Shown here piece by piece: positions 1 through 12,905 of a stretch of DNA of 64,000 bases. The stretch spans positions 77,686,001-77,750,000 of the forward strand of contig OX597821.1 of NCBI GenBank assembly GCA_951406725.2. The letters run 5' to 3'. Below the pieces are notes generated by a model. It saw only the letters and a list, made by a program, of their open reading frames with translations, was not told the origin of the DNA and ran no database searches. Each line of letters starts with the position of its first letter. Position 1 is the stretch's first letter. This DNA comes from Octopus vulgaris (Eukaryota). Made by a program: the position numbers and the translations under genes.

Positions 1-1106
1 AAATAGGACGGAAAAATAATTGCATATTGGTTTGAGGAATGTTTGATAATAATCATTTAAGAATACAAGAATCTTTGATTTTCCCTGACTATATTCAACC
101 TGGTTATGTAGTCAAAACTTGCAAAACGTTTGTAAGCTTTCTTCCCAAATAATGGTTCATTTACAAGTTTTAGGAAATATTTTTCTTCAAAACATATTAA
201 ATTGGGTTGTTTAGGACTTCACACCAAGTACTCTGTAGAGTTCATTGAATTAATACTCATAGATACTTAAGTGCAGGCTGTGTGGTTAGAACTTGTAGTG
301 TGAGAAAGTATATATATTTGATAGTGTGATGTAACTCTTTGGAATAACAATGCATGCGGCTGAAGAGAGCTTTAAACTATCTTTTATAAAGCAGATGAGG
401 GCTGTTCAAATGATTATGTTTCTATTGCTTATTGTACCAACTGATGCAGATATTTTTTTATCAGTGGGAACACTTACATCTTAATGTGCAAGTGGCTGAG
501 CACTCCATAGTAGCTGTCCACCGAAGTTCCATATAATATGGGAATGAAAAAGGAAAAGGAGGAAAATACAATGTTACTAAAACAAAGACACATTCACAAG
601 TAGACAAACAAATGGTTTGATTAGGGTATAATCAATTTGGCGAGGAAACTAAAGAGAAAATATTACGACGATGACCACCACAGATCTACAATGGAAGAAT
701 TCACCACGTGTAGTTGAGGGTAAAAGAAATCGTTGAACGACAGTAAGTACGTCCAAAATTTATAAAGCAGTGACATACATACATACATAGATACTTGTAG
801 CACACATGTATATACATGCAGAGTGAAAATAAATCACACTATTTAATGTGACGGACTACACTGCAAAAAAATCAAAAATTTCATTTCTGTTTACAAACTT
901 TCTCCGTGTCTATACGCACAAATACTTTTATGTATACACACGCAATATTTAAGAAAAAAAGGAATATACACAAAAAAGAACGAAACATGTGTATATACAC
1001 ACACAATATTTAAGAACAAGGAATATACACAAAAAAGAACGAATCAAAACAAATATTTTATATTTTACTTTTATCGTATTGTTGTTTACATTTTCTGTCT
1101 CTACGG

Positions 1107-2214
1107 ATGACCAGAACCAACAGAATCGCCATGGTGAAATCCATAGCGGCGTGCGATAAGACTGGTCGCTGCTCTAAAATAGAACACTGCCCAGAAAATC
1201 ACACCTGCCACATCTGTACGGAACCCGAAAATACGTTCCGTAATCGCTGGGTCGAATGTGGGACATGTCTCATCTCTGTCTGCCTCCAATGTGCCACGGA
1301 CTTTCAGAAGATCCCAGGCCAAAAAAAGAGCCATCATAATGCTATGATGGATAGACTCTGGAAGTTGGTTCAGCTTAAATCTTGGACTTTTCAGTGTCAG
1401 GCCTGCGTGCCTCCACAACCGACGATTGTGTCTCCCCCTGCCACTCCCGTGGAGGAGGCGGAACAGCAACAGCAGCAACAACAAAATCAACCACAACCAG
1501 AGCAGCAGCAACAACAAAATCAACCACAACCAGAGCAGCAGCAACAACAACATCAACAACAAAATCAACCACAACCAGAGCAACAACAACAACACCAATT
1601 GACCAGTGCGGTTCTTGCAGAACTGCAACAATCGATCTGTGCTTTAAAAGGGGAAGTAGCAGGAATAAAAGCAACCATTCAGGTTGGACTCCACAATGAG
1701 GGGTCTTATCGGAATGCTCTGCTAAAGAACCTCCCTGTACCTGTACCTCTTGTCGCATTTAAGACCGCGGATTCTGCCACCCATGAAGTCATTGCCATTG
1801 GGGTGCCAGAAGACATGGCTGATCTTCAGGCTTTTGCTGCCAACTCAGCCAAAGACCTAGGCTGCGTTCCCCCAACGGGTGCTATCCGCCTTGGACGACC
1901 TGGCCCAAAACCTAGGCTCATCAAGTTGTCTTTTACGGACCCCACTGAGGCAACCTCTTACCATCTGGCCTCAGTTAAAGCTGGGCGGGAAAATCGGACC
2001 ACCTTCCGAACACGCCCAGGCTTACCGTCCGAAGCTACGTGTAGTGGCTTCCCTGAATAGGAACTCAGCTCTACAGGAAAGCTTCAGTCTTCGGGAAGAT
2101 GGACAAATCTGGAGATTTGTCAAGACTGCTGAAACGTGGAAGAGAGATACCAGCTGGTCTGAGTGCTCTCTACCCACAATAACTAAAAAGACTACAGCAA
2201 CTCAGGGAAACTAA
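1107..2214 (+). CDS. LINE ORF1p (PHD-like Zn finger, polyQ/QP linker, coiled coil, RRM-like region), split by a 1-nt frameshift near 2030
   Basis: CHIC..WVECGTC..C..C..FQCQAC finger and RLGRPGPKPRLIKLSF motif typical of CR1-group ORF1. ORF 1107-2060 appears to continue in the frame of 1879-2214 (LRVVASLNRN...QGN*). Confidence 0.8.
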
Positions 2215-5036
2215 GCCAGAACAACCTGCCATCCTCTACACACCATCATAAACTGCGAGCAGGGTACAAATTGTTGTCCTTAAATGCTAGCAGTTTATGC
2301 AACAAAATACATTTGTTCAACGCCTACGTCAGAAGTGTTGACCCTGACTTCATCACTGTCACGGAAACATGGGCGCATTCCTTACTCTGTGATGGGGTTT
2401 TCAACATTACGGGGTACAACCTCTTCCGTAAGGACCGCACTAACCGCCGTGGTGGTGGTGTGATGGTCTACGTTCGTTCAAATTTTTTGGTAATTCCTTG
2501 TGCCGATTTGAACGAATCACAAGAAGAAGTTTTTTTCTGTGACGTGCGTATGACCATGTCAACACTCCTGCTTGGCGTTGTTTATCGTCCCCCAAGTTAC
2601 CATCGGGACACACAGCTTTGCAATGTCCTCCGAGCTGCTGCCAGGAAAACAGCCACTTATGTGTTTATTGCAGGCGATTTCAATCATCCTGAGATCGATT
2701 GGGAGACCTTCCATTGGCCACAGAGTGCAAACGATTTTGTTGAGCTTGTGCTGGACTCAAACTGGTCACAAGTAGTCACCTCTCCAACAAGAGGCGACAA
2801 CACCTTGGACCTGCTCTTCACCACAACTCCTGAAGCAGTTATCAATTGCACTACGGAGGAACCTCTAGGTGACTCTGATCATGCTATGATCATCGCCAAT
2901 CTGGCTCTTGCGGGCAACAAAAACCTGAACCATCTCCAATCTGCTTCCTTCGATTGGAAGAGAGCAGATTGGAACCTGTACCACACTGAACTACAGCACC
3001 CAAACTGGCGTGAATTCTACAACTCTGGAGATGTGAATACTATACTCCAGAGTATCCTGGACTCAATATGGGCAGCATGTGCAGCATCAGTGCCACGTAA
3101 ACAAAAAAAGAAGAACCGCCCCAAAAGGGCAATTTGGGAAACTTCAGCGGTCCGACTTGCCAGGAGGGAACGTCGGACTGCTGAACGGGAATACAGGTTG
3201 CATAAATCAGACACCAACAGGAAGAAGCGGAATAAATCCTCCAACCATCTCAAGCAGGTGACAAAAAAGGCAGTGCTTGAATTTGAACAGTGCATAGCAG
3301 CCAATCCTGACAGCAAGGTTTTCTGGAAATATGTGCACTCAAAGCAGAGACCTCACTCTCCAGTGGGCCCTCTTCGCAACCCTCACACAAACCAGATCAC
3401 TGACGACCCCAAGGAATGCGCAGAACTCATTGCCGAGTGCTATGCAAACATATTCACTGTTGAAAGTCAAAATGTACCATCTTCACCATCACTAACAGCA
3501 AACTCCATAACAACTATGGAATTTACACCTGCAATGCTGCGACGTCACCTTCAAAATAAGCGCAACTATGCCTCCCCTGGTCTCGATGGAGTTACATACC
3601 TGCTTCTCAAACGTGGCAGGCACTTCCTTTTACACCAGCTTTCTATTTTCTTCCAGTACTGTCTCAACAATGGTGCTACTCCGGAGCAGTGGAAAACTGC
3701 CAGTGTCATTCCTCTGTTCAAAAAGGGCGACCGCACATCACCTGTCAACTATCACCCAGTCAGTCTCACTAGCTGTATTGCAAAACTGATGGAATCGTGT
3801 GTCAGAGAAACACTCTGGAACTTCTGGAGCTCTCACAGTCTCATCCGACCCTCACAATATGGATTTGTCCCTAACTCCAGCTGCAGTGACCAGCTTGTCG
3901 AGTTCCTTGAGGACATTACTCAGATTACTGACAGTGGCTCATGGGTGGATGTTGTCTACCTTGACTTTGCTAAGGCTTTCAACTCTGTGCCACACAAAAG
4001 GCTTATGGTGAAACTCTCTGCAATGGGTGTGGGGGATGACCTTTTTAACTGGTTGAAATCCTTCATCCTCAGCCGAAAGGAGGTAGTCACAGTTCTAGGA
4101 CAGCACTCTACACCATATGAGATGTCATCGGGTGTACCACAGGGATCTGTCCTTGGTCCCCTCTTGTTTGTGGCATACATTAACGACATAGATGCCAATT
4201 TAAAGAATGCCACAGTATTGAAATATGCAGACGACATCAAGCTGTACCTTGAAATCAAGAGGACAGATCCTGATGTCTACAACTCTTTCCTGCAATCAGA
4301 CCTAGACACAATGCAGCAATGGATCACAGACTGGCAACTGAAACTGGCTGTGGACAAGTGTACCACCATGCATTTTGGGAGAAAAAACCCTGCGTTCACA
4401 TACTCCCTCCACAACACTGATATCAAGAAATCCTCTTGTGAGCGTGACCTAGGCATCACTGTCAGCAGTGATTTGCGTTGGTCAAAGCATATCTCTAAGA
4501 TTGTCAGGAAGGCCGAGGGTGTCTTGGCATCACTCAGCAGGTCTTTTGTTAGCCGCTCTCCAGCCATCTATTTAAAACTGTATACAGCTATGGTACGACC
4601 ACACTTGGAATTCGCATCATCAGTTTGGAACCCCTATCTTGCACAGAACATTGACCTCCTGGAATCTGTCCAGAGACGTGCAACCAAACGCATACCCTCC
4701 ATCAGACACCTACCATATTCTGAGCGCCTTGTTTCCCTGGGCATGGATTCACTGAAGCTCCGGCGTTTGGCGACGGACTTGGTAAACACCCACAAAGTTA
4801 TCAACCACCTCACCAACAACAACACTGAACACCTTTTTGATCTCCATGTGTCTAACACACGTGGACATGCCTACAAAGTCAGAAAACAATACAGCTCCCA
4901 TGACTTTCGGAAACATTTTTTCACGCTCAGAGTTGCTGAAGCATGGAATAAACTGCCTGCGTCAGTTGTTGACTGCCATGACACTGCATCTTTTAAGGCC
5001 CTCATGCTTTCCGAAATCCGCCGAAACTACACCTGA
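2187..5036 (+). CDS. LINE ORF2p: apurinic-like endonuclease + reverse transcriptase (CR1 clade)
   Basis: APE motifs (LNASS, VTETW, GDFN, LDLL, SDH), RT motifs (QYGF, LDFAKAF, GVPQGSVLGP, YADD), CR1 C-terminus (TRGH..RKHFF..RV..WNKLP). Frame is open from 2187; ORF track starts at TTG 2271. Confidence 0.97.
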   Translation, partial: KDYSNSGKLSQNNLPSSTHHHKLRAGYKLLSLNASSLCNKIHLFNAYVRSVDPDFITVTETWAHSLLCDGVFNITGYNLFRKDRTNRRGGGVMVYVRSNFLVIPCADLNESQEEVFFCDVRMTMSTLLLGVVYRPPSYHRDTQLCNVLRAAARKTATYVFIAGDFNHPEIDWETFHWPQSANDFVELVLDSNWSQVVTSPTRGDNTLDLLFTTTPEAVINCTTEEPLGDSDHAMIIANLALAGNKNLNHLQSASFDWKRADWNLYHTELQHPNWREFYNSGDVNTILQSILDSIWAACAASVPRKQKKKNRPKRAIWETSAVRLARRERRTAEREYRLHKSDTNRKKRNKSSNHLKQVTKKAVLEFEQCIAANPDSKVFWKYVHSKQRPHSPVGPLRNPHTNQITDDPKECAELIAECYANIFTVESQNVPSSPSLTANSITTMEFTPAMLRRHLQNKRNYASPGLDGVTYLLLKRGRHFLLHQLSIFFQYCLNNGATPEQWKTASVIPLFKKGDRTSPVNYHPVSLTSCIAKLMESCVRETLWNFWSSHSLIRPSQYGFVPNSSCSDQLVEFLEDITQITDSGSWVDVVYLDFAKAFNSVPHKRLMVKLSAMGVGDDLFNWLKSFILSRKEVVTVLGQHSTPYEMSSGVPQGSVLGPLLFVAYINDIDANLKNATVLKYADDIKLYLEIKRTDPDVYNSFLQSDLDTMQQWITDWQLKLAVDKCTTMHFGRKNPAFTYSLHNTDIKKSSCERDLGITVSSDLRWSKHISKIVRKAEGVLASLSRSFVSRSPAIYLKLYTAMVRPHLEFASSVWNPYLAQNIDLLESVQRRATKRIPSIRHLPYSERLVSLGMDSLKLRRLATDLVNTHKVINHLTNNNTEHLFDLHVSNTRGHAYKVRKQYSSHDFRKHFFTLRVAEAWNKLPASVVDCHDTASFKALMLSEIRRNYT

Positions 5037-5241
5037 TTATATATACACTTTAGATGAGTTGTAGTGCACCTGAGCACTGTACACAATTATTATTATTATT
5101 ATATAACTCTGCTTCTCAACCACGTGGTTCTGAGTTCAGTCCTGCTGCATGGTATCTTAGGCAAGTGTCTTCTACTATAGCTTCAGGCTAACCAAAGCCT
5201 TCTGGGTGGATTTGGTAGGTGGAAATTAAAAGATGCCTGTT

Positions 5242-12199: not shown

Positions 12200-12905
12200 G
12201 GTTATATACTAGTAAACTAGTAACATCAGTTAAAAGGCCTCCTTTAGACAAAATACACAAACGAAATTGTCTGAAATGGACAGAAGATAACACGAAGATC
12301 GACTTTTGTTTACTGACGAAACTCGTGCTACCCTTGACGGACCTGATGGTTAGAGCAAGGGATGGGTTGTAAATGGACGCCATTGAGACGCCAACAAGGG
12401 GAGGAAGCATCATGATTTGGGCAGGTATTATTAGAGGTATTATGGTTGGTCCTTGGAAAGTGCCCGAGAGTGTTAAAATGGCTGTGGATGCTAACATATC
12501 CTTTCCGAGGGAGCACTTTGAACCTTGGTTAAAAAAGCAAAGGATCGCCTTCAAGACAACCATAATATTCATGCAAGATGATGCGCCCTCACACTCAGCG
12601 AAGAAAATTACAGAGTATCTACGACAATTAAGCTTCTGTGGACCTCGGAAGATGAAGGGACCCGCCTGTTCCCCCAACATAACCCAGTAGAAAACTTGTG
12701 GAGTATTCTAAAGCGACGAGTTAATGAGAACTGACGTGAATTTAAGATCAAAGATATATAATAATAATGAAATTATTGTATACAGTGCTCAGGTGCACCA
12801 CTGTGGTATGCAATAGCAGATGTATCTCGTGGTATAACATGAGAGGAGATCCAGAAATTAGCATGTTCCATGGACCAGCGCCTCTTCCAACTTATTTTAA
12901 ACAAA
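12200..12905 (+). pseudogene. Decayed Tc1-superfamily transposase (DD37E-like spacing)
   Basis: TDETRATLDGPDG, GGSIMIWAGI, FMQDDAPSH..SP..PVENLWSILKR across frameshifts. Confidence 0.85.
12759..12801 (-). mobile_element. Extreme 5'-truncated copy of the CR1 LINE 3' tail
   Basis: Reverse complement gtggtgcacctgagcactgtatacaataatttcattattat matches 5061-5100. Confidence 0.8.

Follow-up and report, generated by a model that had tools for sequence, protein, structure and literature searches.

Organization of the ORF1/ORF2 junction

The window analyzed here is a 64,000-nucleotide (nt) stretch of the Octopus vulgaris genome (assembly GCA_951406725.2, contig OX597821.1, forward-strand positions 77,686,001 to 77,750,000) that carries a full-length copy of a long interspersed nuclear element (LINE) of the CR1 type. 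The second open reading frame (ORF2) of this element lies in the -1 frame relative to ORF1 and has no usable AUG, and a slippery heptamer occupies the end of ORF1. From the sequence comparisons below we consider it probable that intact copies produce an ORF1-ORF2 fusion by low-level -1 programmed frameshifting. The features of the junction are as follows (window coordinates and strand):

2026-2214 (+), ORF1 3' part: C-terminal domain, then an unconserved tail with the terminus ...TATQGN*; joined to the 5' part without a break in intact copies
2187-5036 (+), ORF2 in the -1 frame, 949 codons: short leader, APE endonuclease at ~2280-2882 and reverse transcriptase (RT) at ~3729-4403
2205-2211 (+), slippery heptamer G_GGA_AAC in X_XXY_YYZ register
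2212-2214 (+), ORF1 stop codon TAA directly 3' of the heptamer (TAG in the relative L031)
2253-2255 (+), in-frame CTG with A at -3, ten codons 5' of the conserved endonuclease Asn: rival non-AUG start
2463-2465 (+), first in-frame ATG of ORF2, residue 93, inside the endonuclease

An earlier reading of this DNA made without database searches (the sequence-only reading) had claimed that ORF1 ends with the heptamer in the correct register, and the codons CAG (2203-2205), GGA (2206-2208), AAC (2209-2211) and TAA (2212-2214) bear this out. ORF2 was likewise found in the -1 frame as described, open from 2187 to 5036 (949 amino acids) with a 28-nt overlap with ORF1. Its first AUG indeed falls inside the endonuclease, since ATG 2463 encodes residue 93 and the Pfam endonuclease domain covers residues 32-232; a product begun there would miss the first third of the domain. 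This ATG sits 249 nt past the ORF1 stop, and no AUG is placed as in coupling of the SART1 or termination upstream ribosome-binding site (TURBS) type. As a gauge of chance in the window alone, GGGAAAC occurs four times in its 64 kb, and canonical heptamers stand in register at 3 of 393 ORF1 codons, including the site at 2205-2211. A protease domain able to cut a fusion was not found by Pfam.

The coupling of ORF1 to ORF2 that had been read from the window would apply to the junction of the family but not to the window copy itself. Two further features bear on this point:

1107-2060 (+), ORF1 5' part: Cys-rich PHD-like finger, polyQ repeat (1462-1598), coiled coil and RRM
2025-2031 (+), site of an 11-nt deletion that throws ORF1 out of frame in the window copy and two others

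Because of the deletion, the frame from ATG 1107 stops at TAG 2058-2060. The deletion is common to 3 of 30 loci (the window, L002 and L003), whereas the other 27 keep the 11 nt, as do contigs of all four sequencing runs, and the intact copy L012 encodes a continuous 392-residue ORF1 that ends in TATQGN. Since ORF1 is broken upstream, the heptamer cannot be reached in register in the window copy, and the junction described here is that of the family.

Conservation of the heptamer in related elements

GGGAAAC is present in all 30 of the best family copies, which are near-identical and prove little. A set of 20 diverged copies, picked for lower endonuclease identity and including 17 that span the whole heptamer, had changes at 0 of 124 heptamer letters versus 51 of 942 leader letters and 60 of 1460 letters upstream, many of the changes being shared among copies and hence not independent. 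The ORF1 tail just 5' of the heptamer contains insertions of 6-19 nt in diverged copies. In a sister family (75-77% nucleotide identity), 18 of 22 loci carry GGGAAAC TAA, the remainder being three single-letter variants and one truncated locus; the codon before GGA varies (CAG, CTG, TTG, ATG or GTG) and its third G is constant. The metagenome relative L031 is far more distant (57% endonuclease identity, 0.88 changes per site) and reads CAG GGA AAC TAG; the leader that comes next is open but unrelated in sequence. The distance comes from a quick tree of 59 rows, used for distances only, from which ORF2 stretches of less than 330 amino acids other than L031 were omitted. The ORF1 of L031 is homologous and carries a disrupting indel of its own.

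All three lineages with DNA have GGA AAC after a G, and in each of them ORF2 is open in the -1 frame from the heptamer. In a six-row alignment the heptamer forms an island of identity, with AAT instead of AAC in one row; its conservation extends far beyond that of its flanks in the family, the sister family and L031. An AUG ahead of the APE domain was found in frame in none of the 30 family copies and in none of the sister-family leaders examined; in L031 the first in-frame Met lies two residues before the conserved endonuclease Asn, within the first strand. Neither of these two results contradicts the programmed frameshifting that the sequence-only reading had put forward. Searches for further DNA of the ORF1 homologs gave no loci in viral or prokaryote contigs, and own-genome searches with distant queries returned only the two known families, as judged by match coordinates and the loci fetched.

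The same copies bear on a different route, in which ribosomes terminate at TAA and reinitiate at the non-AUG codon CUG 2253 to give a separate ORF2 protein (ORF2p), the heptamer being incidental or a mere pause site. That CTG, with an A at -3, has a counterpart at the identical position in the sister family, which speaks against frameshifting; 20 of 20 diverged copies retain it, a start there would put four residues ahead of the first endonuclease strand, and a predicted hairpin (2247-2299, see below) covers it. Reinitiation is also the accepted route for SART1 and has been proposed for mammalian L1 (PMC3708506, PMC5972666). The leader of L031, however, contains no in-frame CTG, GTG, TTG or ACG, and the heptamer is nonetheless kept. 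Moreover, the Leu at this position may reflect a constraint on the peptide, and GGGA adjoins the stop, whereas a TURBS motif would sit 40-90 nt upstream.

The sister family also bears on a route at the RNA or DNA level, by which ORF2 would be brought into frame when a polymerase or the RT slips in the G/A run, when the RNA is spliced, or when editing introduces a start. An extra G is found at the slippery run in 15 of 39 sister-family loci. All 15 belong to one lineage of RTE-CR1 chimeras, pointing to a single event, and none of the other 24 loci is chimeric. Contigs of the four sequencing runs, which are of presumed RNA or unspecified kind and drop rare variants, have no indel or joint at 2205-2214, and the leader offers no in-frame AUA from which A-to-I editing could make a start. 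We regard such a route as highly improbable. The extra-G subfamily was separately considered as a hard-wired fusion and rejected, as all 15 copies represent one chimera with a stop just upstream and lend no support. Longer relatives with ORF1 and ORF2 fused in frame were absent among 7411 candidates, which is weak evidence.

A dipeptide footprint in the tails of ORF1 homologs

A profile search gave 113 representatives of ORF1 homologs; with the query, 94 of 114 sequences reach the conserved C-terminal Trp motif, in the region of which their median pairwise identity is 39%. The dipeptides GN, EN and KN are the zero-frame readings of G_GGA_AAC, G_GAA_AAC and A_AAA_AAC, respectively, and 91 of the 94 tails contain one of them (first motif GN in 65, EN in 20 and KN in 6). 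Shuffled tails did so in 31.6 cases on average and in 49 at most (2000 shuffles), and the reversed order was seen in 41 tails. The dipeptide lies 1-36 residues past the last conserved Trp and 0-23 residues ahead of the stop, with 22 of 91 tails ending on it, and falls in a region modelled as disordered (pLDDT, the per-residue model confidence, <50). The residue preceding GN or EN lacked a G-ending codon 0 times in 86; where these dipeptides occur in other parts of the proteins, it did so 34 times in 144. Ser and Gln dominate before GN (43 and 20 of 86).

This pattern could instead reflect a conserved peptide motif of the ORF1 protein (ORF1p), such as a turn, a cleavage site or a degron, with the heptamer as a by-product of codon use and ORF2 expressed by another route. 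The excess of Ser and Gln goes beyond what codon endings alone demand, most homologs are known from their peptides, and in some wider families K-N or E-N falls within a conserved C-terminal motif of ORF1. In this clade, by contrast, the dipeptide has no fixed position in a disordered tail whose length varies, and Gly, Glu and Lys alternate exactly as G_GGA, G_GAA and A_AAA would. In addition, GGA AAC follows a G in each of the three DNA lineages although Gly is encoded here by GGA in 24% of cases and Asn by AAC in 64%. With the synonymous resampling reported below also standing against it, a peptide motif appears a quite improbable explanation.

Overlap phase and heptamers in wider CR1-type loci

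A wider sample comprised the best 80 of 470 confirmed CR1-type metagenome loci, 61 of them with a callable ORF1. ORF2 overlaps ORF1 in the -1 frame in 41 of the 61 loci and in the +1 frame in 6, and it abuts or is separated from ORF1 in 14. In 24 of the 41 -1 loci no in-frame Met precedes the endonuclease. A canonical heptamer stands in register within the overlap in 26 of the 41, versus 3 and 5 in the other phases; after clustering at 60% identity the count is 14 of 23, versus 2 and 3. When the ORF1 peptide is resampled with synonymous codons, 4.75 of 23 are expected rather than the observed 14 (P 1.5e-6), a result that argues against the peptide-motif explanation. A relaxed set that adds G_GA and A_AAA_AAG to the canonical heptamers matches 18 of 23 clusters (6.2 expected), this set having been picked after the data were seen and the clusters being related to each other. 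A cruder and weaker phase test that needs no ORF1 call gave 29, 13 and 17 by phase (48 cluster representatives). Several overlaps of 200-460 nt begin at A_AAA_AAC with both frames open. The ORF1 types among heptamer-bearing loci include esterase and PHD; U_UUA_AAC followed by TAG occurs in L046, L049, L055 and L077, and the ORF1 of L049 is an esterase.

Reinitiation leaves unexplained the bias toward the -1 frame, the overlaps that start at a heptamer and keep both frames open for up to 460 nt, and the GN/EN/KN footprint within 23 codons of the stop. Together with the evidence from the CTG at 2253, this makes reinitiation an unlikely route in our judgment.

We favor, with less confidence than for the window family, the view that -1 frameshifting is the main and old route of ORF2 expression across much of the CR1 group, giving a Gag-Pol-like ORF1p-ORF2p fusion. 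The arrangement would have survived swaps of the ORF1 type (esterase, PHD, L1-like) and of the heptamer (G_GGA_AAC, G_GAA_AAC, A_AAA_AAC, U_UUA_AAC, U_UUU_UUA), and in the window lineage it would operate without a local RNA stimulator.

Seven loci (L035, L039, L041, L050, L059, L071 and L091) overlap in -1 by 79-115 nt but have no canonical heptamer; each carries a GGG GGA run close to where the ORF2 frame opens, possibly a non-canonical shift site. An in-frame AUG is missing in six of them, and L071 has one four codons before the endonuclease Asn. Two exceptional loci carry G_GCA_AAY.

Other arrangements were also noted. In L069, L080, L075, L087 and L101, ORF2 follows directly after the ORF1 stop in frame, with the contexts TGA CTG (twice), TAG CTA, TGA CAA and TGA CGG; these loci are candidates for stop-codon readthrough as a second recoding route, and UGAC is named as leaky in a review (PMC3542737). 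The distant ORF2 homologs P0010, P0013 and P0018 have 2A-like motifs (GDxExNPGP or GDIHPHPGP) ahead of the endonuclease, a recoding type described in PMC3708506.

RNA structure downstream of the heptamer

The sequence-only reading could not confidently see a stimulatory structure, and rightly so, as z scores against shuffled sequences were 0.77 for 2212-2290 and 0.16 for 2215-2270. The search covered local, nested structure by single-sequence and alignment folding. A single element was predicted further downstream:

2247-2299 (+), predicted long hairpin 35 nt past the heptamer (z -2.66 for 2217-2330)

As a classical stimulator this hairpin was rejected, being too distant and unconserved (consensus energy -2.16, covariation term -0.02). 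Structure 5-9 nt downstream is present in L031. At 35 wider CR1 sites, hand-picked after the data were seen, the mean z was -0.99 immediately after the heptamer (n=33) versus -0.20 to +0.15 at ten other offsets, and clear hairpins 8-12 nt 3' of the heptamer were found, for example, in L033, L044 (heptamer U_UUU_UUA), L051, L074 and L092 (A_AAA_AAC).

Proposed mechanism of ORF2 expression

The layout of the junction, the lack of a usable AUG, and the conservation of the heptamer, its register and the open leader are direct observations. Programmed -1 frameshifting would account for them in the following way. Most ribosomes would end ORF1p at the stop codon. A minority would slip back by one base through tandem re-pairing of tRNA-Gly and tRNA-Asn from GGA AAC to GGG AAA and resume reading as ...QGN-LSQNN... 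into the endonuclease, yielding a fusion of ~1,330 residues with endonuclease and RT at a low ORF2:ORF1 ratio. G_GGA_AAC ranks among the most shift-prone heptamers according to PMC5009743. Given that the window family has no local stimulator, efficiency would be low, and the pause may come from the adjacent stop, from distant RNA pairing or from basal slippage rather than from a local pseudoknot. Both kinds of aid have reported parallels: in pea enation mosaic virus, -1 shifting depends on a nearby stop (PMC5009743), and long-range frameshift stimulators are reported in PMC3542737.

Several observations weigh against this interpretation. A stimulatory downstream element is part of the usual -1 signal (PMC3542737), and stable or conserved structure 5-9 nt 3' of the heptamer is lacking in the family (z -0.4) and the sister family (z 0.2); without such a stem-loop the junction is not classed as a classical two-part frameshift signal. 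DNA of this ORF1 clade comes from three lineages, and the codons of the other homologs are inferred from peptides. The residues Lys and Glu, for which G-ending codons are available, are also scarce before GN, which suggests that ancestry or a peptide role contributes to the footprint. The closest ORF2 homolog, P0004, was annotated with a Met that lies 59 residues ahead of the endonuclease Asn, and its leader contains no G-K; known here from the protein alone, it is a possible exception to the AUG-less -1 layout. Among the wider loci, 17 of the 41 in the -1 frame do have an in-frame Met, and 9 of the 23 -1 clusters lack a strict heptamer, 5 of them lacking even a relaxed one (one of these is cut by a contig end).

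Comparison with known recoding systems

Programmed -1 frameshifting is well known in long terminal repeat (LTR) elements and viruses. The junction resembles those of retroviral and Ty3-gypsy gag-pol, PEG10 and viral replicases in that an in-register heptamer ends an RNA-binding ORF1 and is followed by an RT ORF in the -1 frame without its own start (PMC3542737, PMC5009743). In contrast to these systems, the window element is a non-LTR retrotransposon, has no conserved structure 5-9 nt downstream, and has no protease domain found by Pfam.

That well-studied LINEs use other forms of coupling, as the sequence-only reading stated, agrees with the reinitiation given in reviews for SART1 and L1 but does not extend to the APE-type non-LTR elements TRE5-A and TRE3-A of Dictyostelium, both of which require a -1 frameshift for ORF2 according to a review (PMC5911963). 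The two elements differ from the present one in clade and host and in the C-terminal zinc finger of ORF2, and the legend in that review gives neither a heptamer nor an experiment. SART1 (UAAUG coupling), mammalian L1 (AUG-independent reinitiation) and the 2A-bearing elements of the CR1 group likewise express ORF2 unconventionally from a bicistronic LINE RNA (PMC3708506, PMC5972666). The window junction differs from all of them, having no stop-start pentamer, no AUG-bearing spacer between the ORFs and no NPGP, but a 28-nt -1 overlap. In Paramecium elements, a +1 shift or readthrough has been suggested in a review.

Closest in organization are the type IIC LINEs of the CR1 group (CR1 subgroup 5 and L2 subgroup 6; PMC4120745), which share the ORF1 architecture (coiled coil, RRM and C-terminal domain, with a PHD finger to which the Cys-rich N-terminus may correspond), an ORF2 with APE and RT, and a short tandem 3' repeat, the subgroup placement being tentative. 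In the main text of PMC4120745 and PMC13343379, the words 'frameshift' and 'overlap' do not occur. Our literature search returned no account of frameshifting in CR1; older subscription papers and Repbase notes on CR1, T1 and Q lay outside it and may mention the overlap. How ORF2 of LINEs is translated from a bicistronic RNA was called 'not clear' in PMC3708506, the tested cases being the reinitiation of SART1 and L1.

CR1-group elements are described as the dominant retrotransposons of most vertebrates (PMC13343379). If the proposal is true, their ORF2p would be synthesized joined to ORF1p in a fixed, low proportion, much like retroviral Gag-Pol. Such a fusion would keep the enzyme on the ORF1p particle and on the RNA that encodes it, and would change the annotation of CR1 ORF2. 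A shift site that works without local structure would also be of interest to frameshift specialists.

The element, its copies and its ORF1

The remaining features define the extent of the element:

509-5102 (+), full-length CR1-type LINE copy of a young family, from its 5' and 3' boundaries and the copy list
509-1106 (+), 5' untranslated region, from the 5' boundary to the first ORF1 ATG
5086-5102 (+), (ATT)n 3' terminal repeat

The 5' boundary at 509 is common to seven other loci, four further loci ending at 510-513 or being cut there, and the 3' boundary is at 5102. The family has at least 150 copies in the 2.8-Gb genome, with endonuclease identities of 90-100%, and is very young. As in other APE-type LINEs, its copies are dispersed, with variable 5' truncation and a common 3' end, and ORF2 carries an APE endonuclease and an RT (Pfam PF03372, PF14529 and PF00078). 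The endonuclease profile matches the human L1 endonuclease (E 1.6e-7), and searches of PDB sequences by phmmer with the endonuclease and with an ORF1 profile gave nothing useful. The CR1 label is provisional and based on the (ATT)n end, on relatives with an esterase or PHD ORF1, and in part on a C-terminal ORF2 motif typical of CR1. In the window copy, A replaces the C found at position 2289 in all sequencing-run contigs and diverged copies, thereby altering a conserved residue of an endonuclease motif (LNARS to LNASS).

The second ATG of ORF1, at 1131, has a better context than that at 1107. A model of the homolog P0039 (pLDDT 91.6) consists of a coiled coil, an RRM and a C-terminal domain, the architecture of type II/IIC in the CR1 group, and its top 11 Foldseek matches are human L1 ORF1p (best E 1.7e-6). 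The PHD-like finger was read by eye from the Cys pattern; P0002 had no Pfam match at 0.001, and PHD was matched in 1 of 44 ORF1 homologs (E 0.0067). ORF1 of the window LINE resembles type IIC of the CR1/L2 elements as described in PMC4120745. Its polyQ/QPQPE repeat (1462-1598) differs in length among near-identical copies.

The chimeras with the extra G (L113-L115, L118, L120, L124, L127, L129, L160, L161, L163, L165, L167, L168 and L172) are multi-copy and occur on several contigs of the same genome. They consist of at least 1.2 kb of a decayed RT, which we take to be RTE-like, joined to the last ~200 nt of the sister-family ORF1 and its ORF2, and the one extra G at the slippery run sets the ORF1 remnant in frame with ORF2. 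The RT in L113 (1-1249) contains in its C-terminal half a Cys-rich insertion that we presume to be PHD-like. Elsewhere in the window, a 50-nt piece at 12752-12801 (-) is 88% like the 3' end of the LINE and lies in the opposite orientation.

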